A DNA stretch of 64,000 nucleotides from the NCBI GenBank assembly GCA_004764695.1, contig SMSO01000035.1:2108001-2172000 (forward strand). Reading direction: 5' to 3'. Within the stretch, counting starts at the first letter, position 1, and the number at the start of each line of letters is the position of its first letter. Both the position numbers and the translations under genes were made by a program. Under the pieces are notes generated by a model that made no database searches, had not been told where the DNA came from, and worked only from the letters and a program-made list of their open reading frames with translations. The stretch is from Schizochytrium sp. TIO01 (Eukaryota > Protista > Bigyra: Labyrinthulomycetes). Below are positions 601-61,048 of the stretch, in pieces.

Positions 601-1296
601 CTTTGTACATTTATGCACGTGCTTTCGTTACGACAGAGTACTTCTCGGGAAGTCAAAAACGCGGCTCACTTTATAAGTTTGCCCTGCTTGTGAGCAATTC
701 CCTCTACTAAACCGCAAGAAGATCTCCGCCCTCGTTCTTCAATTGATTGAGTGCTTGGCTTGGTCTTGCCTTTGGACAACTCCTTTAATTTTTAATTTTT
801 CAGAAAGGACTTTTTTTTTTTTTTTTTTAACAACTTGAAAACAAAGAGGAAATCAACAAAAATCTCGTAAAATGGAACGAAGAGAAAGAGGATGCTTAGC
901 TTGGGTCAAAGCACTAAAACTCGGGCAGTTTCCAAGGGTGACCATACAAAGATTTAGTTACCAATGCTCATACAACCTGTTAGCGTTGTACCTGGTGCAA
1001 GTTAGTGAAAGAATAAGATATTTCTAGACCCCGTATTCTATTTTTTTGTTATGCGAGAGGGAGGAATTCAATAATCTAGAGCATGGTCATCGAAGAATGA
1101 ATCTCCTATTTTCAAAACTTTACTATTGCAGAGGTTAATCGTCCAAAGGGACAAACCTCAACAAGCACTTTGAATCTCTAATATGCTTAGAGGTTACTTG
1201 TTCAGTCGGGGCATTACTCCAATGAGTTGCAACTTGTTAGAAGACTATTTATATTTCAACATGATAAATTTATTTATTTTCACAAATGCGTGGTCC

Positions 1297-2784
1297 TTAT
1301 GATTCGCCTAGACGCAGTGTATTAATTATGAAAGGATTGTGCACGGCAATCTGAGTCTTGTTCGTTATAATTTCCCGAACAGCAGTATATCTCTCTTCAA
1401 CTACATCCACGTCGTGCGCCTCCTCCAAAAACTCGGTAATATTTTCATAAACCAGATACCGACGCTTTGCTACAATAATGTACCCAAGGAGAATCAAAAT
1501 CAGAGCTTCGATATTCACTATAAGTGGTAGTTCATCATACCACCAATCGGGCAGCAAGCGTTTATCATATCCTAATGAGTAGAGCAATGGCATGATCCCG
1601 TTGATGACACTGAGCAGAGCAATAAGTGTACCTAAGACATGGAAAGTATAGTCAGCGACTGGCTCAACCCAAATCATCATGAAGAGAATAATCACAGACG
1701 ATATCAAGAAAAGTAAAGGAGAAGCTACTGCTGGTGAAAAGACTGAGCCTAAGACTACGCCCCTTATAAAAACATCGCAAAGCTCGTAAACCCTTGTCCA
1801 TTCTGTGCCTGGTCTAAGGTCTGAGACGATATAGAAGGCAACGTGTTGGTCCTTCCAATGAACTAACTGCAATCGTTGTATTGTACCTGCAGGGGCCTCA
1901 CGTACGACCTCACAACGGCGGATATATGACCGAATTAGGCTCATCACCCAAAAGATATAAATCGCTATGAAACCGAGAGTAAATGCCCCCAAGAAGATCA
2001 TGAAAGTTCTTCCAGTACGGCATGAAGGCCAAGGGTAAAAGATCGAGAATAGCAAAGTAAAAGATGAAAAAATTGAGAGAGCGTATACCCAGAGTAGCTG
2101 AGCTCGAACTGTCCGGTGCAACAAGCATCGTTTCATGCTTGGTGGGTTTCGTAATATTGTGTACTCTAATATAGCTGCAAAGCATAGCACCAAACAAGTA
2201 ATCAACCATGCGCTCGGCAGGAGAAAATGTGGCTCAAGCTGGATTGCCTCAGCAAATTCATTTATTGGAGTTGCAGAGACATTCCAAAAATCGTCGCAGC
2301 GATCTGAACTTGACGAAATTGGAAAGAGAATCCCCACGAAGTTTGACCACGAGAACGAATATACATAGTTCGTAAACGATTCTGGTGCTCCTGGTAAAGT
2401 CATTAAGCCATAGGAATTAGTCTGCTGCACAAATTCAAGTACATTCACCGGAGAGTCCGATGATGGTGAGGTGAGCGAAAAAAACATTGATGCACATATA
2501 AGAAAGTTAGCTCCTGCAACTGAAGGTGCTGAGCGCACTTGCACATCCGAGCTCGACTGCTCACTTGTCGTGGAGGCATTGACCACATCTCCATTATCCC
2601 CACTTGTGTCTAGCAAACCCTCAAAGAAGCTGGGCAGGTCAACTGGCGTGGCTTGAGCTTGGCTTACGTTTGCCAAGATGGCACCAAGTGTCACTATGTA
2701 GAGCAGCCGCAGCCATTTCTTGTGCCGTAGTACCTGAGTAGGCTTCGTGCTTATTGTGCTTGGCCAAACGCATAGGCCTGACAT
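1297..2784 (-). CDS. Multi-pass membrane protein with signal peptide (about 7 TM; loosely TRP/FLC-like C-terminal membrane domain)
   Basis: 495-aa ORF with a hydrophobic signal segment (WLRLLYIVTLGAILANVSQAQA) and many hydrophobic helices in the C-terminal 300 aa. Family assignment is weak. Confidence 0.7.
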   Translation of the reverse strand: MSGLCVWPSTISTKPTQVLRHKKWLRLLYIVTLGAILANVSQAQATPVDLPSFFEGLLDTSGDNGDVVNASTTSEQSSSDVQVRSAPSVAGANFLICASMFFSLTSPSSDSPVNVLEFVQQTNSYGLMTLPGAPESFTNYVYSFSWSNFVGILFPISSSSDRCDDFWNVSATPINEFAEAIQLEPHFLLPSAWLITCLVLCFAAILEYTILRNPPSMKRCLLHRTVRAQLLWVYALSIFSSFTLLFSIFYPWPSCRTGRTFMIFLGAFTLGFIAIYIFWVMSLIRSYIRRCEVVREAPAGTIQRLQLVHWKDQHVAFYIVSDLRPGTEWTRVYELCDVFIRGVVLGSVFSPAVASPLLFLISSVIILFMMIWVEPVADYTFHVLGTLIALLSVINGIMPLLYSLGYDKRLLPDWWYDELPLIVNIEALILILLGYIIVAKRRYLVYENITEFLEEAHDVDVVEERYTAVREIITNKTQIAVHNPFIINTLRLGES

Positions 2785-6441: not shown

Positions 6442-7095
6442 ATCTCCTCGCAACATGCATTTAACGTCTCTTGCAGTCAGTCCAAGCGATCCCGAAATGC
6501 GTGTCTGGCCTGACTCTCTGGCAAACATCTCCTCGAGCAACAAGTAACGCACGAGAGAGCGCACATCTTTAGGTTAGTTAGGTTCCACTGGCCGCGACCC
6601 ATATGATTCGTTGGCTCAATCTGCATTACTCTGAACCACGTGAACTTCTTCCGCTCACAGCAAACGTTCTCCTTTTGGGAATGTGTAAGACTGATCCATG
6701 AAATCCCATCTTTTTGTAATCGTCACTACCATGATCATAACGATTTATTGCATTTCTATTACGCCAATGATATTGTAAAATATAAAAATATAAAAATAGC
6801 CATACCTACTCATTGTTTCCTTTTTTCCTTAAATTTAATTTCAATTTATCAAAACGATCCATCTGAAAATGTGCGGTAGTTGGGTAAAAAGAACTGTTCT
6901 ACCAAAGATAATTTTGGGGAAAATCTGAAATTCGAATCAGCATGTTAAAAAGGCTTTCAATAAATATCATAGACTTTAAGGACAGTATGATTGTTTACTT
7001 TACATAGTATAATATCATAAACAGTAGTGAGTAGGCAGGTTGTATGTACATTTGGAAGAATTTCAATGATCGAAGAGGATTGAAGTTGAAGCAGA

Positions 7096-8658
7096 TTAAT
7101 TCAGTGGCCGTTCACCACGTTGTTGCAAGCACTTCGCACAGTAATCTAAAAGGCAAATATTGCAATGAAACATTGCTGCAGGGGGGGCGTGGAAAGTGCC
7201 ACAACGATCACAATAGTATCCCTTCAGGTATTCTTCGTCGCTTCGACGGTCAGCCATTTGTTGCGGCGTCTGGAGCGCATATGTATGTGAGCCGTTTCCA
7301 AAGCAGTCTATAACTTTTTGAGCCTTATGTGAGACTGGGGCAATTTTGATGCTCTTGTAATATCTGCGCCTTGCACAGGCACAAAACCGTTTGACAATAC
7401 AAGGTAATACGAAGAAAACCACGAAGACAACAATGGCACCTATAATTGAAATACCTCCATTAGTGTCACAAACTTCCCATTCGCAAGGACACCATTCCAA
7501 ATTGGTGCTCATGCAGGTTTGAAATGCAGAATAATTTGCTGGAGCCCCAAGCACTGTCTCAAGGTAGTAATTTGCTTCGTTCGTAGAGTTGCTCAAATAA
7601 GGCGCGCAATCATCATCCTCCTCACAAATCATATACTCAGATATACAGTTGCTGTCAATGTAGTATTGTACATGAGCCCATCCACCATCGTCCCGTGTAA
7701 AATGTTGGCCTACTGGGACGCAGTAACCAGCCCAATCTTCGCTTATACAGACTCCAATATTAGCGTCTGCAGGGCATGGATCATAGCCATACACTGTCTG
7801 CACTGTCGCGGTTGTTACAGCCGAGCTTTTTAACTCCAAGCTATCTGAGTTTCCCACAACTAATTCTTCAGAGCAGCCGCAAATAAGATTTTCTTGTGTT
7901 CCTTGTTGGCAGCCAGGGTCAGTCGGGTAGCTTGAGCAGCGCGAGCTTCCATAGTAGCGAGACGACCTGAAATACACAAGTGCTGCCCAAGAATATCCAG
8001 AATTAGAAATGAAATAACCTTTGGATGAAATATAGTATGATCCGCCACCGGACGATGTGTAATATGTCTTCGAGAATAACCTGTCTAATAAATCATAAGA
8101 AAATGAGTCGCCAGAGGAACCTTTGTTATGAACAAGTACACCTTCAACGAAGAACCAATGCGTTGGTTCAAGGCGTAATGTATATGTGGGAACTGCATCA
8201 GGCATGCGAACTAGATCGGTGACGTTAGCCAAGACAAGGCTTCCTGTTTCAGACATGAGAGCCTCATTTTCCTGTCGCATTTGCACAGCCTCCATACGAT
8301 AGGCTGATGCAGTAGTATCTGGTCGAAGTGAAATGACTTGTTTGCTCTCAAAACCATAATAGGGATGGTCTGGGGTTGACCAGATGAAAGAACCTGTCTC
8401 CATTTCTAGTTTCATTAGCTCGTTGGCTTCAGATGCGATTAGGTCTATTACGTTGGCCTCCACAACTTCTTCTAGTTCAAGATCATACGACAGCACACGA
8501 TCTCCTGGTTGTATATCTTTAATCGCTTTAAGAGACTTATCAGCCATATGTACTCGCATCGTGCCAGTAAAGCAAGAGCTGCCCTGTGATAATGTCGGGA
8601 GTAGCGCAAACAGGGTAAACGATACGCCACCCCACGACATAGTGCTGCTTAAGCGCAT
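7096..8658 (-). CDS. Signal peptide + Hint (intein-like) domain + Cys-rich ectodomain + TM + cytoplasmic Zn-finger protein
   Basis: First ATG at 8658. Hint block A CFTGTMRVHMAD...IKDIQPGDRVLS, block B STPDHPY, block F/G TYTLRLEPTHWFFVEGVLVHN. TM IIGAIVVFVVFFVLPCIV. C-terminal CDRC...HCNICLLDYCAKC. Confidence 0.9.
   Translation of the reverse strand: MRLSSTMSWGGVSFTLFALLPTLSQGSSCFTGTMRVHMADKSLKAIKDIQPGDRVLSYDLELEEVVEANVIDLIASEANELMKLEMETGSFIWSTPDHPYYGFESKQVISLRPDTTASAYRMEAVQMRQENEALMSETGSLVLANVTDLVRMPDAVPTYTLRLEPTHWFFVEGVLVHNKGSSGDSFSYDLLDRLFSKTYYTSSGGGSYYISSKGYFISNSGYSWAALVYFRSSRYYGSSRCSSYPTDPGCQQGTQENLICGCSEELVVGNSDSLELKSSAVTTATVQTVYGYDPCPADANIGVCISEDWAGYCVPVGQHFTRDDGGWAHVQYYIDSNCISEYMICEEDDDCAPYLSNSTNEANYYLETVLGAPANYSAFQTCMSTNLEWCPCEWEVCDTNGGISIIGAIVVFVVFFVLPCIVKRFCACARRRYYKSIKIAPVSHKAQKVIDCFGNGSHTYALQTPQQMADRRSDEEYLKGYYCDRCGTFHAPPAAMFHCNICLLDYCAKCLQQRGERPLN
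8125..8574 (-). other. Hint / intein-like autoprocessing domain (150 aa, no homing endonuclease)
   Basis: Starts with Cys (TGC, 8572-8574), contains TxxH and ends His-Asn (8125-8130). The +1 residue is Lys, not Cys/Ser/Thr. Confidence 0.9.
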
Positions 8659-10019
8659 CTTATCTTTTCCAAAAGAAAGGTGACGAAAAGAAAGGATCAC
8701 CTTGTTCGAGTAGCACGGTGATCTTTTCTGATTGCTGGTTTGTTGCTAAAACTTTTAGAGCAGAAACCGGGTTCGTTTCTCGTGCCCTAACAATACAACA
8801 AAATTGCTTACGCTGAATGGTTATGAAGCGCCGCCAAGACATCTTTGGGTAATTAAATTATGTGGTTTATAAATCCGCGCTTGGCAAGGCTCGCTAATTC
8901 CTGCTCCATGACCTGCTCCCGAAGTTTAGCACGGACATGTCCCACCTCGTATGTTCATGTGTGTGCGATCTATATTGTGAGGAGTCTATGCGAGAATGAT
9001 TTTCTAAAGAACTCTAGGCGCTTCTTTATAACACTAAGTTACGATTTGGCGCGAGCTTTGTTTACAAATCACAACTAAGCCGGACTGTGCTAGAGATCCG
9101 TTACATGAATCTCAGTGCCCCTACTTATATTCATGGACAAGCGGATCAAAACTCCCACAATTTTGATTACATACAGATCCCCCGTAGGCACTAGCCTATG
9201 ATACTGCCTATGCGTGTCTCGCCTCCACAGCCACGAAGACCAAACCTTTAGCTTTCCCTCACAGTGCGTGTCTGCTCCATAAGCCTGCATTCACAGAGCT
9301 TGCTTTGAAAATGAAACAAACGAAGCAAGAGGATCCATGATCACTTCTGCTCGCTTACCAGACCAAGAGTATCTGCAATAGAGTCTCCCTGACGCTTCGC
9401 CATCTTTGGTCTTGGTGCAAGGCATTGATTGCAAGGCATTGATTGCAAGGCATTGATTGTCCTGTTCTCGGCGATGATGCCGAGCAAGGTGGAGACGCCA
9501 GGGTTCTCCAAGCCCACGACGACGAAGAAGACGAGGTTCTCGAGTTCTACCTCGTGTAGGTCCTGACTGGCCGGCCGGTTGCCTGCCTCTCTTTATGCCT
9601 ACTCCAAGTGCTTCCTTCCATCCACAGACAGAAATCCGACGGCGGTGGCGAACTGCATTCACGAGATTACAATGGCTCCTCATTCTTCACTCCACTCGCT
9701 GGAAAAGACGGTTGCTGTGTCGTGGGCACAGGCAGAAAGCAGTTAGTTACCTTCTGCAGCCACGGCAGAAGAGGGTGTTTATGCATTGCTTGATTGATTC
9801 GTTTACGTGCAAACCAATTGCGAGGAGGTCTGTGCAGTCAATCCTGAGCAATTCCATGCAGTTCTGTGCAATTCTGTGCAATTCTGGGCAAGTTGGCTTA
9901 TTAAAGCTCGAACTGATTTGTATGGTTGAAGGACGCGATCGATTGATTGATTGATTGATTGATTGGCTGTTGCACAGCCAAGTCTGAAGAGCGTGGAAAT
10001 GATGAAGAGACAGGTAGAC

Positions 10020-22001: not shown

Positions 22002-23798
22002 TTAAATCATGTCCTTGGATAGGTAGCGTAAAAGGATGCCTCTTGCGGCATGGACATCACGGTCTGCTACATGGTTGCACTTGGGATTAGGGCATTGGAA
22101 AACCTTGGATGCCCCGAGTTTATGGTGGAGGGTACCGCACTCATTGCATGTTTTTGAAGTGTAGCTCTCTTGGCAAAGAACAAGCTTGCACCACGGGAAC
22201 ATCTCAGCCTTATGAATGAGAGCCTGGCGGAACCCAAAATGGGACCAACGACACATCATTCGAACAGACTTCTTGGATATCCGTCGCTCCATCCTCCTGC
22301 TCATCTTAGAGGTTTCGAATTTAGGCAAGAGAATAACACGATAGTTTTCACAAAGCCAAAGCGCGAGCTTGCGGTGAATCTCAGTGATCTTGTTCTTGAT
22401 CTTGAGTTGGGCGCGATAGAAGGCGCGCTTCAAGGGGGTGTTGAAATCGTATGCAGTTTTCTTTTTATTTTCTTGAGCTTTATCAATCCTGCTTTGGATC
22501 TTATCAACGCGGCGACAGAGATAGAATATGGTTCTAAAATCTTTCCCTGTGCCCCATTCAATGGCGCGGCCATCAGCATCATACATCGTCTGAAACGAGC
22601 GAACACCTGGATCTAGAGCAATGACACTGTGGTGCGCCTTGGGTGCCTGGTCCATTGGACGCTTTTCTTCTTCTCGTAAGAAGCAGAAGTACACATGCCC
22701 AAGGCGATTCATTTGCACACGCATGGCGTTCTTAATCTGACTGGGGAACTTTTCTTTACGTGTTCGGAATTCTTTTAGAAAGTTGGAGGTCTTTGATTTC
22801 TTCGCATTCCAGGTACGTGCATTCACTTCGAAAATCTGTGATTCATCACGCTTGGTCCGAAACTTATAAAAAGATTGCTCATGGACTTTCTTTTGTACAG
22901 CGAGTTCTTCGTTTTTGGCTCGTCCAGAGTTAAGAGCCTTGAAGAAATCCAGAATCCCGGAATCACGGATAGCCTGTGGGACCTCGAGAACCCATTCAGG
23001 AGCATCATGCCTTTCTTTAGATCGAACGGCTTTCTTTTCTCCATAGAGGGCACCATACGTTTGGGGATTCCCATCTTCATCTACTAAAACCTGCTTCGTC
23101 TTGGAATCCTTTTTGATGCACGCTTCTTGATGCAATTTGATGGCTTCTTCCTCGCCCTTCGCCACGTCTCGGTGAAACGCAACGCCAGTATTGTAGGCTC
23201 TTCTAGTGACACCAAACCATTTAAGCAACTGTGTACGCTGATCTTTAGTAGGGTATACCCTGACCTTTTTGGCACGGACAAGGTCATATTCTTTCTTGAT
23301 GGTCTTGCGCGCCTTCGTGCGAGCTCGCTTCTTCCTCGCTGCGTCGTCGCCGTCTATTTTGCGCTGCTCGTTTTCCGTGATGCGATGCCACAAAGACGGT
23401 GATGATTCCGAGGAGGTCTTTGGTGAAGGTGTCTGCGTCTCCGGCATGTGCATCTTGGCCGTGTACCACGATTTTGACATTTTTTCTTTCGAAAAGGTGT
23501 TCCAGGAGGTCGACTGCGATTCGCGCAAGTCGGTCGCGGTGCATGACCACAACTTGGCCGATTCCGCCGCGGTCACAGGCGTCCAGTAGGGAGCACAGGC
23601 CTTGGCGTTTGAAATTGACCCCGCTACCGATGTCTTTGTAGACGGCGGAAGCATCTGGGTAGGCGCGCTGGAGATCGCCAACCTGGCGTTCGAGGTCCTC
23701 CTTTTGCTTGGCCGAGGACACTCTGGCGTAGATAACGGTACATCCAGAGCTGCGTTGCTCGCGGCCGGTGGAACCGCAATCAAAGATGCGCTCAACAT
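22002..23798 (-). CDS. tnpB: Fanzor2 / IS607 TnpB-like RNA-guided endonuclease
   Basis: HTH KKVRVYPTKDQRTQLLKWFGVTRRAYN; RuvC-I VIALDPGVRSF; ILLPKFET (Pro at the canonical Glu position) with the alternative Glu in QESYTSKTC; Zn ribbon CNEC...CPNPKC; RuvC-III DRDVHAARGI; basic NLS-like stretch ARKKRARTKARK. First ATG at 23798. Confidence 0.95.
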   Translation of the reverse strand: MLSASLIAVPPAASNAALDVPLSTPECPRPSKRRTSNARLAISSAPTQMLPPSTKTSVAGSISNAKACAPYWTPVTAAESAKLWSCTATDLRESQSTSWNTFSKEKMSKSWYTAKMHMPETQTPSPKTSSESSPSLWHRITENEQRKIDGDDAARKKRARTKARKTIKKEYDLVRAKKVRVYPTKDQRTQLLKWFGVTRRAYNTGVAFHRDVAKGEEEAIKLHQEACIKKDSKTKQVLVDEDGNPQTYGALYGEKKAVRSKERHDAPEWVLEVPQAIRDSGILDFFKALNSGRAKNEELAVQKKVHEQSFYKFRTKRDESQIFEVNARTWNAKKSKTSNFLKEFRTRKEKFPSQIKNAMRVQMNRLGHVYFCFLREEEKRPMDQAPKAHHSVIALDPGVRSFQTMYDADGRAIEWGTGKDFRTIFYLCRRVDKIQSRIDKAQENKKKTAYDFNTPLKRAFYRAQLKIKNKITEIHRKLALWLCENYRVILLPKFETSKMSRRMERRISKKSVRMMCRWSHFGFRQALIHKAEMFPWCKLVLCQESYTSKTCNECGTLHHKLGASKVFQCPNPKCNHVADRDVHAARGILLRYLSKDMI

Positions 23799-57133: not shown

Positions 57134-60100
57134 TTATTTAAGCTTTGCGTAAGCTCTTTCACAGATACCTAAAAACGGAAACCTTCTATGTGCTGCTTGA
57201 ACTGCCTCGCAAGCACCTACCCTTATAAGCTGGCTTGCCACTTCGCGGTTACATGCCATAACATAAATTGCCTCGCATGCTTGTTTCTGCACATTCCCAT
57301 TCATTCGATGTGCTTGCATGGAAACAACGATCTCTGCACCTGCGTTCAATACTAGTGCTAGATTGATGTTGTTGTTCTCGTTCTCAGCAAGATTACGCAA
57401 TGCCCCGCATGCATGTAGTTGCACAGCCACATTCATCCGATGAGTATGCATTGCAACCACTATATATCCGCCTGCATTTATATCTCGCCCAAGTATCGCA
57501 CTGTTGACTTGACTTGCTGAAAGATTTAATAGCGCTTCGCATGCGTTTCTCTGCACGTTATCATCCATCTCATGTTCTTGCATTGCAGCCACAACCTGCA
57601 AACCTACATCCGAATTTTGCCCAAGAATCACGCTATTGCGTTCATTCGTAGCAAGGTTCGATAGCGCCTTGCACGCGTTTTCTTGCAAGTACGCGTTCGC
57701 TGGATGTTCGCTCATGGTCGCCGTAATCTCTGCACCCAGATTTAGAGTTTGACCTAATATGACTTTGTTCCGGTCGCTTTCAGTAAGATACTGCAATATT
57801 GCACATATTTCTTCTTGCGTATCTTCATCCGTTCGATGAATACGCATGGTATTTATAATTGCCAGACACAAATTGAGGTCTTGTCCAAGTACATGCTTGT
57901 TGCGGTCACCAGAAGCCAAAGCTCGGAGTGCTCCGCATGCGTTGCATTGAATGTCGAGATTCAGATCATGTTCGCGCATGGTAGCCTCAATTTCTGCTAG
58001 TAAATTCAAATCTTGCCCAAGAAGTTCTTTGTTACGATCGCTCAGAGAAAGGCTGCGGAGCGCTCCACATGCCAGCTCTTGTAGTTCTTCATTCATCCGA
58101 AATGTACGCATAGCTATCATAATTTCTCTCCCTGCATTTTGATTTTGTAGGAGAATATCGGCGTTACGGGTGTTCATAGTGCCCAGAGTCCAAAGTGTTC
58201 TACATGCTTCTGTCTGCACATTAACATTTTCTCGATGCGCGCGCATCGCTGCCATAATTTCTGCTCCTACGTTGAGATCTTGCACCAGTATCTTGCAATT
58301 CGTATCGTCGTTATATCCAAGTACACACAATGCGCCAACCGCCGATTCTTGCACATCAGCATGTGACCTATGTTCGCGCATCGCTGCCAATATTTCTGCT
58401 CCCGCCACACTGAGATCTTCTCTCAAAGTCTCCCTGTTGCGAGAGCTAAGTGCAAGATTATGGAACACACGGCATGCTTCTGTCTGCACATTAGCATTTG
58501 ATCGATGATCACGCATGGCGGTCAAAATGTCTACATGTACGTTTAAGGTTTGCTCGAGAACCTCTCTGTTGTCGTTACTTAGTTGAGCAAGAATATACAA
58601 CGCCCTAAATGCTTGTTCTTGCACCTCTGCAACTATACGATGTGCTCGGATAGCCTCCTGAATAACTGAGCCCGAATCGACATCTTTTAAGAGTATCTCC
58701 GAGTTGTAGAAATTGTTAGAAAGGTTTTGTAATGCTTTACATGCCCAAAGTTGCACATTGGCATCCGATTGGTGTGCGCTCATAGCAGCGGCAATTTCTG
58801 CACCCACACTCATCTCCTCTACAAGAATCTCACAATTTCGATCATTTCCAGAAACAAGATTATACAATGCTCTACATGCCTCTTCCTGAACCTTTGCATT
58901 TGTCTGATGTGTCCCCATAGCCGTCATAATCTCAGCACCAGCATTCGAATCTTGAATAAGAATGTCTCTGTTAGAGTTATTGGATGCAAGAGAACATAAT
59001 AGTATACAAGCCTGTTCCTGGACTTGAGCGTTAGATGGAAAAGCGCGCATGACAGCTACAATCTCAGAGCCCAAGTTTAGATCTTGTACGAGGGCAATCC
59101 GATTACCCTCGTGGACCGTCACAAGGCTCCTTAGACTTGCAAAAACTGATAATTGGACTTCAGCATTGCTGGCTTGTTCTTGCAAAATACAAATGAGGTC
59201 AGATCCCCAAGAGAAATTTGTCATTGCGGCCTCAATATACTCATAGGCAGTTTCTCCAGATAAAGCAAAATGTAACGTCCATAAGGCTTCAGATATCAAT
59301 TTTGGGTCGTCTTTTTGTTCTCCTAAAATTCGTTGTAAATGAACAAGAATCCCTCGTGTCCGCACCTCACTCCGCAGCTGATCTTGACCCTCCCCATTCT
59401 TAAATTCGCCTTCCAAGATATTGCGTAAAGCCCCTAACGTGTTTAGCAAATTGGCTCGTTCATTTGGATTGACCAAGTCTCGAACAAAACCTTGGACTCT
59501 TTCAATTTCTATAGTTGCTTTGGTAGATCGACGACGATCTAGTTTTGAAAACGTGCCAGCAATTCCGCGTATAAGACGACTCGACCGTCGTTTAACACCA
59601 CGTGCTTCAAATTTTTTCAAAGCTTCCTCCGCGCTCGGTCGCTCTCCAGGGTTTTGACTCCAGCATAATTCGATGACGCGAGTCACCCATGATTTGGCCG
59701 ATGCTTCCTCATAAATAGCAGGACGCATGCCTGCTAAAACCATGCTTTCAATCTCCCCTGGTAGTAAGCTTAAGTCATATGGCACTTTTTCATGATATAT
59801 TTCCCAAGACATCATTCCTAACGAATATATATCTGCCTTAGTAGTCCATTGTACAGGTGCTTGGAGCACTTCAGGGGCCATGTACCTGGATGAATGAGGT
59901 AGTGCAATGGTGTAGGTTTGACTTGTGTTTGGGCGTGTTCTAGCAGCCAACCCAAAATTTGCAAGTTTGGCAAGCCCCAAATCGTGTCTAAGCATCACAT
60001 TCGCAGGCTGAAGATTACTATGGACCACATTTTGATCATGAAGATAACAGAGCCCCTTTGTGATACTACACAGAATTCTCTCTTTGTCGTCAAGACTTAG

Positions 60101-61048
60101 AGTAGTATGTGTGTCACTCTGTTTCATTTGTGACAGTACATGAGCAAGAGACAAATCGCACTGATCCATGACCAAATGAAATTGGTTTTGGATTATGCAG
60201 GTCCCGAGTAGGCATATTATATTATTGTGGAACAATCCACGACAACATTCGGCTTCGTTGATCAAAGCCTTTCTCTCAGCAAATTCAGACGATGCAGTTA
60301 CTTTACGATATTTTTTTGTAGCAATTGGTATACTGACACCGTTATCATCACGAAGGATACCGAAGAGGACTGTTCCAAAACTTCCATTGTCACGAGTGGG
60401 ATCTGGGGATTCTATTGAAACCGTTCCTTGCTCCAAGGTGGCGATTTCGGACTCATGAGTCCCTTGCAGCATAGAGGTAAACTCCTGAAGCGCCTGCTGC
60501 TCTGTCTCTGTCCCGGCTTTTCCTTCGACAATATCTGCGAGGTCCATATCAGATTTATCCTTTATCATCAACAATAATGTGTCCGCTTGATCGTAGCCTT
60601 GATCTTGGTAGTGCGTTATCATTTCTTCAAGGTGAAGCTGGTCTTCTTCGGCGTCGTTGAGGTCCATTTCTTCGATAGATATGGGAGGCACCGGGAACTC
60701 AAAGCATACATGATGGACATGAGTCAAAGTCTGTAAGCGATGCTCCACATACAAGAGCGCTTGGTATGCTCGCTTGGCGTATATGAGCTGCAGAATCTTA
60801 GCGGAGCTATTATCCGTAATTGGCTCAAAAACTCCACGAAGGAGAGAGACAGCGTTGCGTAGATTGGCCTCGACTATGAAAAAATTGATATCCTCGTTCT
60901 GCGAGTACTCAAAAAACCCTGCAAGTTTGTTGAAGGCATTATGGAGGTGTGCAGCTCTTTGGCGGCAGGTGTTTGTATGCTCGAGAAGTGCGGCACCCTG
61001 ACATGCAAGTTTTTGCGAATAAAAGAAGTTTGCAGGTGGGTTGGGCAT
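57134..61048 (-). CDS. N-terminal helical bundle + TKL-type pseudokinase + ARM-repeat protein (MLKL-like architecture)
   Basis: Kinase fold GSFGTV, IATKK, HSNLQPANV (HRD lost), ANFG (DFG lost), YMAPE, ADIYSLG, RPSA; about 15 repeats of AEIxxAMxxHxxxxxVQxxACxALxxL; amphipathic N-terminal 120 aa. First ATG at 61048. Confidence 0.9.
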   Translation of the reverse strand: MPNPPANFFYSQKLACQGAALLEHTNTCRQRAAHLHNAFNKLAGFFEYSQNEDINFFIVEANLRNAVSLLRGVFEPITDNSSAKILQLIYAKRAYQALLYVEHRLQTLTHVHHVCFEFPVPPISIEEMDLNDAEEDQLHLEEMITHYQDQGYDQADTLLLMIKDKSDMDLADIVEGKAGTETEQQALQEFTSMLQGTHESEIATLEQGTVSIESPDPTRDNGSFGTVLFGILRDDNGVSIPIATKKYRKVTASSEFAERKALINEAECCRGLFHNNIICLLGTCIIQNQFHLVMDQCDLSLAHVLSQMKQSDTHTTLSLDDKERILCSITKGLCYLHDQNVVHSNLQPANVMLRHDLGLAKLANFGLAARTRPNTSQTYTIALPHSSRYMAPEVLQAPVQWTTKADIYSLGMMSWEIYHEKVPYDLSLLPGEIESMVLAGMRPAIYEEASAKSWVTRVIELCWSQNPGERPSAEEALKKFEARGVKRRSSRLIRGIAGTFSKLDRRRSTKATIEIERVQGFVRDLVNPNERANLLNTLGALRNILEGEFKNGEGQDQLRSEVRTRGILVHLQRILGEQKDDPKLISEALWTLHFALSGETAYEYIEAAMTNFSWGSDLICILQEQASNAEVQLSVFASLRSLVTVHEGNRIALVQDLNLGSEIVAVMRAFPSNAQVQEQACILLCSLASNNSNRDILIQDSNAGAEIMTAMGTHQTNAKVQEEACRALYNLVSGNDRNCEILVEEMSVGAEIAAAMSAHQSDANVQLWACKALQNLSNNFYNSEILLKDVDSGSVIQEAIRAHRIVAEVQEQAFRALYILAQLSNDNREVLEQTLNVHVDILTAMRDHRSNANVQTEACRVFHNLALSSRNRETLREDLSVAGAEILAAMREHRSHADVQESAVGALCVLGYNDDTNCKILVQDLNVGAEIMAAMRAHRENVNVQTEACRTLWTLGTMNTRNADILLQNQNAGREIMIAMRTFRMNEELQELACGALRSLSLSDRNKELLGQDLNLLAEIEATMREHDLNLDIQCNACGALRALASGDRNKHVLGQDLNLCLAIINTMRIHRTDEDTQEEICAILQYLTESDRNKVILGQTLNLGAEITATMSEHPANAYLQENACKALSNLATNERNSVILGQNSDVGLQVVAAMQEHEMDDNVQRNACEALLNLSASQVNSAILGRDINAGGYIVVAMHTHRMNVAVQLHACGALRNLAENENNNINLALVLNAGAEIVVSMQAHRMNGNVQKQACEAIYVMACNREVASQLIRVGACEAVQAAHRRFPFLGICERAYAKLK

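Follow-up and report, generated by a model that had tools for sequence, protein, structure and literature searches.

What does a Hint domain do at the very start of a predicted surface protein of Schizochytrium sp. TIO01? The question is raised by a single ORF in the window, i.e., the whole 64-kb stretch of DNA that was analyzed. The initial annotation had described its 520-aa product as a signal peptide followed by a Hint domain, a Cys-rich ectodomain, a membrane helix and a zinc finger, an anatomy with which Pfam matches, fold comparison, hydropathy and a hand-judged signal peptide agree (Table 1). The domain kind is already known; its placement and the protist family to which it belongs appear new.

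Gene and locus

The minus-strand ORF is preceded by an in-frame stop, 30 codons before its ATG. Contigs of four public runs span it without a joint, and no intron is seen. Its neighbors in the window are ordinary eukaryotic genes (a CLC channel, a NatA auxiliary subunit, kinases, a RasGEF), and neither a second Hint nor a second zinc finger of this type occurs within the 64 kb.

Table 1. Features of the Hint-bearing gene (window positions)
Feature	Position	Strand	Basis
Whole gene, predicted type I membrane protein, 520 aa	7096..8658	-	ORF; collinear Hondaea fermentalgiana homologue
Predicted signal peptide, residues 1-26	8581..8658	-	Hand rule; relatives with comparable hydrophobic starts
Residual N-extein Ser-Ser, 0-4 residues depending on the signal cut; lacks the (K/R)G(n) usual in the family	8575..8580	-	
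Hint domain, A-type BIL-like, C29-N178, no endonuclease	8125..8574	-	Pfam, PDB match, AlphaFold model, Foldseek
+1 Lys179 / +2 Gly180, predicted new N-terminus	8119..8124	-	Clade conservation
Gly/Ser/Tyr-rich stretch, residues 179-240, low model confidence; RSSR end precedes the first Cys	7939..8124	-	
Cys-rich ectodomain, residues 241-397, 14 Cys, no Pfam family, without clear fold match	7468..7938	-	
Predicted transmembrane helix, residues 403-421	7396..7452	-	Hydropathy 3.01, basic residues behind
Predicted cytosolic zinc finger, residues 452-510, C-x5-H plus six Cys, C1-like, KKT2/KKT3-finger-like	7129..7305	-	

A second haplotype is about 10% divergent in two blocks of the ORF, both of which are longer by a net 9 bases and stay in frame; across 8138-8561, 6 of 424 bases differ in one run, as read from contigs, which drop variants. 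Both haplotypes are seen over 6873-9400 in runs X14 and X18, and the second diverges completely upstream of about 6873, with loose ends at 6482 and 6873. A putative-RNA contig (6977-8868) brackets the ORF and was discounted as a sign of expression; a second putative-RNA contig extends well beyond the ORF.

An A-type BIL-like Hint directly behind the predicted signal peptide

The Hint spans 150 aa (residues 29-178). In the profile comparison that had been proposed as a check, both Hint (E 1.9e-9) and PT-HINT (E 4.6e-8; 33.8 bits against a cut-off of 27.7) score above their Pfam cut-offs, while Vint and Intein_splicing stay below theirs and Hint_2 is absent from the profile matches of the window protein. 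Residues 28-178 match Tetrahymena BIL2 (PDB 6TMM, 6Y75) among PDB sequences at E 1.2e-9. The AlphaFold model reaches a pLDDT of 91-98 across the ten-residue blocks 31-180, and its top Foldseek matches are BIL2 (6y75, E 5e-14, about 27% identity) and the C. thermocellum BIL (2lwy, E 6e-11). Against profiles built without the window protein the domain obtains 66-140 bits, compared to 5-8 bits for the best of 200 shuffles. Direct reading gives C29, T95-P-D-H98, H167 and H177-N178, followed by K179-G180; T160 and H167 stand in the F-block, and Cys29 is the sole Cys inside the domain. By fold and residues, this is an intact A-type BIL-like domain.

The signal peptide was called by a hand rule, not a predictor. 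It has an h-region at 11-20 and one charge (R2), and plausible cuts after residues 24, 26 or 28 would leave 4, 2 or 0 residues ahead of Cys29. The initial view that there is essentially no N-extein is right for the window gene but not for its family: among the matches listed (31 records), 19 relatives have an intact start, and of these 13 show a mini N-extein (K/R)G(n) ahead of the first Cys and 16 have Gly at -1. The window gene has no N-terminal Lys and, instead of Gly, a Ser at -1; K179-G180 is kept.

Relation to known Hint systems

The features of an A-type BIL, namely a Hint fold without endonuclease, Cys1, the block-B Thr-x-x-His, a terminal His-Asn and no Cys/Ser/Thr at +1, are all found here and, together with an exported context, shared with the A-type BIL/PT-HINT domains represented by the C. 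thermocellum structure (PDB 2LWY). The window protein is not bacterial, however: the neighboring genes are eukaryotic, the named relatives are protists, and no bacterial row falls in its clade. Further differences from A-type BILs are the position directly after the signal peptide of a predicted type I membrane protein, the invariant Lys at +1, the Thr at F:4 and the lack of any toxin domain found downstream. The bacterial intein-like or pretoxin character proposed at the outset accords with the PT-HINT score and with the BIL folds heading the Foldseek matches. Polymorphic toxins share the PT-HINT match; the ectodomain behind the window Hint has no Pfam match, and the membrane helix and zinc finger beyond it do not resemble a released toxin tip.

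A class 1 intein would have Cys, Ser or Thr at +1, where Lys stands here. Ciliate BUBL proteins, with Tetrahymena BIL2 as the best sequence and fold match, are likewise eukaryotic, hold several BILs per chain and lack a +1 nucleophile; their Hints lie between ubiquitin-like domains, none of which flank the window Hint, and the ubiquitin-fusion clade is separate from the protist clade. The initial annotation had taken an HN end without a +1 nucleophile as a bacterial trait. The BIL-like character stands, but the same combination is known from a eukaryote, in BIL2 (PMC8616854, available text), and since BIL2 is reported there to ligate via a Lys isopeptide, cleavage alone cannot be assumed for such an end. 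Protist Hedgehog/Hog and Vint proteins are eukaryotic Hint proteins as well, and Hog is secreted (PMC2362128, in the part available). In Hog, however, the Hint is C-terminal to its cargo and accompanied by a sterol-recognition region, and Vint proteins are described without signal peptides (PMC2362128, PMC7765530, both in part), whereas in the window protein the Hint comes first and ends in His-Asn, followed by a Gly/Ser stretch.

As far as its available text goes, Burglin 2008 (PMC2362128) recognizes Hog, Vint and inteins as eukaryotic Hint families, the accessible part of Green 2018 counts eukaryotic Hints by taxon without naming the organisms of the thraustochytrid/dinoflagellate family, and that of Zhang 2012 places HINT ahead of toxin tips. 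The available portions of PMC4501334, PMC3417536 and PMC9086364 hold nothing on a protist Hint-first family, and an Aurantiochytrium proteome paper (text and four supplements) makes no mention of Hint domains. The early impression that the architecture had not been catalogued thus persists: no description of a Hint-first membrane protein was found in the literature searched, in which subscription journals are thinly covered.

A protist family with one to four tandem Hints

A protein search over 1.84 billion representatives returned 1530 matches, the best 150 of which were analyzed. Within these, P0007, P0008 and P0002 match over the whole length and P0055 matches the finger only. P0007, a Hondaea fermentalgiana protein, is collinear at 37% identity over 509 columns, its annotated start falling inside the Hint. 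The same ectodomain, with one or two fingers, stands behind two Hints in P0002/P0160 and behind three both in P0008 and at locus L082. At L081, the two-Hint relative adjoins an AAA ATPase gene on a compact, eukaryote-like contig. A short paralogue-like ORF (1173-1868, minus strand) lies directly downstream of it, encoding a membrane helix and two fingers of a similar kind but neither Hint nor ectodomain.

For the trees, 336 near-complete Hint domains were taken from the listed proteins and eight bacterial/archaeal ORFs; eight cluster duplicates and partial matches were left out. The fast tree assigns the query, with support 100, to a group that comprises 48 domains of 27 proteins among the matches listed. 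The clade reappears in a maximum-likelihood tree of 77 rows (100/98), where nine ubiquitin-fusion Hints (100/92) and the bacterial rows stand outside it and the query, P0007 and P0160 branch at its base. Named members are Hondaea, Biecheleria cincta and a Prorocentrum/Polarella record; the others are protist-type by tree placement only.

Conservation of HN-K-G in homologues, suggested initially as a check, is pronounced. Among the matches listed, the clade Hints have His-Asn in 48/48, Lys at +1 in 48/48 and Lys-Gly in 45/48, where the motif tag for the set included Lys and the tree, blind to the tag, added only one untagged row. Block-B His is present in 48/48, F:13 His in 47/48 and F:4 Thr in 48/48, the F:4 position being assigned by reading of the alignment; where starts are intact, Cys1 occurs in 43/43 and Gly at -1 in 40/43. 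Counted over 31 of the listed records, Lys follows each of the 58 HN ends. It also opens all 30 internal linkers, which are 2-7 residues long and of which 29 begin with Lys-Gly, and after the last Hint Lys stands in 28/28 ends and Lys-Gly in 26/28, despite differing ectodomains and tails. Outside the clade, and again among the matches listed, Lys at +1 is found in 116/227 other domains, in 52/52 of a bacterial array group and in 2/9 of the ubiquitin fusions.

The family plan consists of a signal peptide, one to four Hints joined by Lys-Gly linkers, a Gly/Ser stretch and a membrane helix, with variable ectodomain and tail. Hint copies often group by protein in the maximum-likelihood tree, which points to repeated independent duplication. 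The single-Hint order described initially applies to the window gene but not to the family with its one to four tandem Hints, of which the window protein is the one-Hint form. We dropped the idea that the window gene is a reduced array: the query is at the clade base, so one copy may be the older state. Among 2750 candidates, within the limited reach of the search, no Hint-less eukaryotic homologue of the ectodomain was found, the three loci detected all bearing Hints; nor did one appear among the 7 rows of a third protein search, limited by its word index.

Two variable sites deserve mention. Dinoflagellate-type members (P0009, P0010, P0019, P0021, P0022, P0025, P0047, P0064 and others) have a polybasic RRR between the Gly-rich stretch and the Cys domain, where the window protein has RSSR; a second, protease-made cut at the RRR site could free a KG peptide. 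Two residues past the F:4 Thr, 15 of 58 clade Hint ends among the matches listed have a Cys, a potential additional nucleophile, in place of which the window protein has Arg.

Ectodomain, membrane helix and zinc finger

Between the Hint and the membrane helix lie 14 Cys in an ectodomain that gives no Pfam family and no Atlas match, a model pLDDT of 50 and a best fold match of Z 3.3. The helix is the sole membrane helix predicted, with a mean hydropathy of 3.0 and KR..RRR after it.

Eight residues are likely ligands of the zinc finger (C452, H458, C483, C486, C499, C502, C507 and C510), in the pattern C-x5-H ... CxxC ... CxxC-x4-C-xx-C. With the six C-terminal Cys as search pattern, 16 finger copies were gathered from 10 proteins; in these the upstream Cys and His also exceed the 80% consensus line. 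The alignment reads C-x(3-6)-H, then CxxC, CxxC and D-x-CxxC, the aligned His being absent in the two copies of one protein. No curated family passes its cut-off for the window finger, which matches C1 domains only weakly in fold (Foldseek E 0.6, Z 2.6-3.1). Its Atlas look-alikes (0.88-0.90) bear C1_2, zf-KKT2_KKT3 and ZZ on 16-70% of their members; the KKT2/KKT3-type finger scores 0.90, and C452/H458 fit the first-zinc-site pattern, with weak fold matches. KKT2 has a C1-like domain whose first zinc site is built from an N-terminal Cys and His, and this is where the likeness of the window finger to the KKT2 CL domain lies; the canonical C1 motif HX12CX2CXnCX2CX4HX2CX7C, as quoted in the same source, is absent (PMC8178753, in the part available). 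Judged by its ligand pattern, the window finger is C1-like and not a canonical C1 domain.

Bacterial and viral parallels

A GTDB genome scan with a bacterial match as query gave 79 loci. Of the 77 ORFs that match the Tim44-like half, 71 bear one to five Hints after a signal peptide and RGGGG; the Hints are joined mostly by KG or KGGG, and the order RGGGG / KG / KGGG is fixed across phyla. The remaining ORFs are five frameshift pieces and one Hint-less two-Tim44 protein (L042), the only such protein among the 79 bacterial loci, from which the whole Gly-rich start is missing. A Hint-less single-Tim44 protein from the same genome set (n=1) has a signal peptide followed by RAGGG. When Hint-less forms were sought in one bacterial phylum, 3 of 251 genomes matched, with Hints in all 3. 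The Tim44-like, Lys-Gly-linked Hint arrays of bacteria and archaea were not found in print.

These bacterial/archaeal proteins resemble the protist family in their signal peptide, (R/K)G(n), one to five KG/KGGG-joined Hints, Gly-rich stretch and membrane helix. Their Hints differ in length (median 132 against 159 aa in protists), have Asn at F:4 and fall outside the protist clade, and their C-terminal half is unrelated to the protist family. Since the bacterial Hints are shorter and outside the clade, the common arrangement either goes back very far or arose by convergence. On the evidence of the trees (about 150 columns), we rejected a recent transfer from the Tim44 family of bacteria.

A viral origin was likewise considered and set aside: 25 viral loci encode HN-ending Hints, and of the 21 viral Hint domains added to the tree none falls inside the clade; the phage collection gave no match. 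A horizontal origin of the Hint, as raised in the initial annotation, is possible on the tree evidence but would be old, not recent, given that a thraustochytrid and dinoflagellates share the clade and that the bacterial and viral rows all fall outside it. Viral contigs L092, L095, L097-L099 and L107 encode proteins of about 1155 aa (L095 is cut at 607) whose Hint, near the N-terminus, stands between two KG(G) motifs. For L095 there is a further match, to a phage tip-attachment protein J domain; this is a KG-Hint-KG arrangement on a probable tail protein. P0012, P0016, P0017, P0020 and P0075 have 3-8 tandem Hints with linkers of 1-5 residues, some of them C-terminal to unrelated domains. Tandem HN-K Hints are widespread beyond the protist and Tim44 families.

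A proposed self-removing cap and its alternatives

We give about an even chance to the reading that the Hint caps a predicted surface protein and likely removes itself by Asn cyclisation, leaving a membrane-anchored Lys-Gly start. Following entry into the secretory pathway and predicted removal of the signal peptide, Asn178, aided by His177 and His167, would cyclise and cut the Asn-Lys bond, as the residues and A-type BIL chemistry suggest. The Cys29 thioester would hydrolyse and drop an N-piece of 0-4 residues, a step that is probably inconsequential in the window gene. The exposed Lys-Gly, Gly/Ser/Tyr-rich end may then be the working tip of the ectodomain, the cap delaying or timing its exposure, which is the weakest of these steps; speculatively, the zinc finger might link the protein to a cytosolic partner or a membrane lipid. 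A receptor or adhesin role of the product is putative only, with no tie of the tail to a signaling pathway.

Self-removal is favored on three grounds. In the window gene the Lys and Gly of the N-side are missing and the C-side pair is kept, so that the C-side is apparently what matters in this gene; the number of copies varies freely; and there is no Asp brake at F:4, where in one intein Asp restrains Asn until branching (PMC4031507, in part). All residues for C-terminal cleavage are present in the window Hint and conserved in the clade, with no Cys/Ser/Thr at +1, and one to four copies that group by protein fit a cap where the last cut alone counts. For type A BILs with their His-Asn end, splicing via the free amine of the C-piece is described as possible and cleavage products as dominant (PMC4031507, PMC7765530, available text). 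The RAGGG start of the Hint-less Tim44 protein (n=1) resembles the RGGGG before and the KGG after Hint arrays, but L042 has no Gly-rich start, and no Hint-less eukaryotic relative was found that would show the mature end. Also against self-removal, Cys1 and Gly at -1 are conserved and not obviously needed for plain C-terminal cleavage, and Lys at +1, which is common outside the clade as well, may be a catalytic preference of this Hint type, not a ligand.

This family-wide retention of Cys1 and Gly-1 is better explained if the Hint ligates, the main rival reading, which we consider somewhat unlikely. An N-peptide held as Cys1 thioester would be passed to the side-chain amine of Lys+1, giving a Gly-Lys isopeptide, or to its alpha-amine after Asn cyclisation, and in arrays the ectodomain tip would come to bear a (Lys-Gly) oligomer or a branched tag. 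The conserved Gly at -1 and Lys at +1 are indeed the pair of a ubiquitin-type link, Lys opens every internal linker among the matches listed, and the bacterial arrays hold their order across phyla. In addition, Lys isopeptide formation has been reported for BIL2, the closest relative of known structure (PMC8616854, in part), and alpha-amine ligation is the route proposed for A-type BILs (PMC4031507, in part). Yet the BIL2 acceptor is described in the available text of the former as a lysine of ubl5, not stated to be at +1, and cleavage was dominant in the A-type BILs tested according to that of the latter. Lys+1 is rare in the ubiquitin-fusion Hints examined, and in the window gene, which has Ser at -1, a signal cut after residue 28 would leave no N-piece. 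The broadest version of ligation strikes us as unlikely: that protists and many uncultured bacteria share an undescribed, enzyme-free tip modification, in which tandem Hints put (K/R)G(n) on the invariant Lys and the resulting extracellular Gly-Lys isopeptide, a minimal ubiquitin-like tag or switch, arms a receptor whose C1-like finger relays the signal.

Self-removal would take a different meaning if the Hint stayed in place as a folded sensor or binding domain, cut on low pH, thiols, zinc or contact, and was shed as a signal. Low pH favors C-terminal cleavage in inteins (PMC4031507, in part), BIL2 is reportedly activated by zinc (PMC8616854, in part), and Cys29 is the only Cys of the window Hint; but no cue-sensing feature was identified, and such a triggered Hint overlaps with the cap, differing mainly in timing and in which product matters. 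We regard it as decidedly unlikely. Quite improbable in our judgment is a tolerated passenger, in which C-terminal cleavage at the mature N-terminus restores the host protein and the Hint persists and duplicates without function. The independent expansions to between one and four copies, and the similar residues before and after each Hint, would suit a passenger. It has, however, no endonuclease or other means of spreading, it is kept in a thraustochytrid and in dinoflagellates with near-invariant catalytic residues, and no Hint-less allele or homologue of the ectodomain turned up in the searches described above.

In the literature searched, eukaryotes use Hints in inteins, Hog/Hedgehog, Vint and ciliate BUBL. 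To these would be added an A-type BIL that heads membrane proteins of the secretory pathway, in one to four copies and with an invariant +1 Lys. If true, it would amount to protease-free unmasking or modification of a surface N-terminus in thraustochytrids and dinoflagellates. The single-Hint window gene is the simplest member for asking how a natural A-type BIL acts, by cleavage, aminolysis splicing or isopeptide formation, and a Hint that leaves a clean Lys-Gly end, or ligates to lysine, would suit protein engineering.

Other features of the window

Elsewhere in the window, a 1304-aa protein (57134-61048, minus strand) has a kinase domain ahead of many armadillo / LRRK2-type ARM repeats. A 598-aa TnpB-like ORF (22002-23798, minus strand) matches Cas12f1-like_TNB (E 2e-13), HTH_OrfB_IS605 (E 2e-9) and OrfB_IS605 in this eukaryotic genome, and we take it to be probably a Fanzor-type element.
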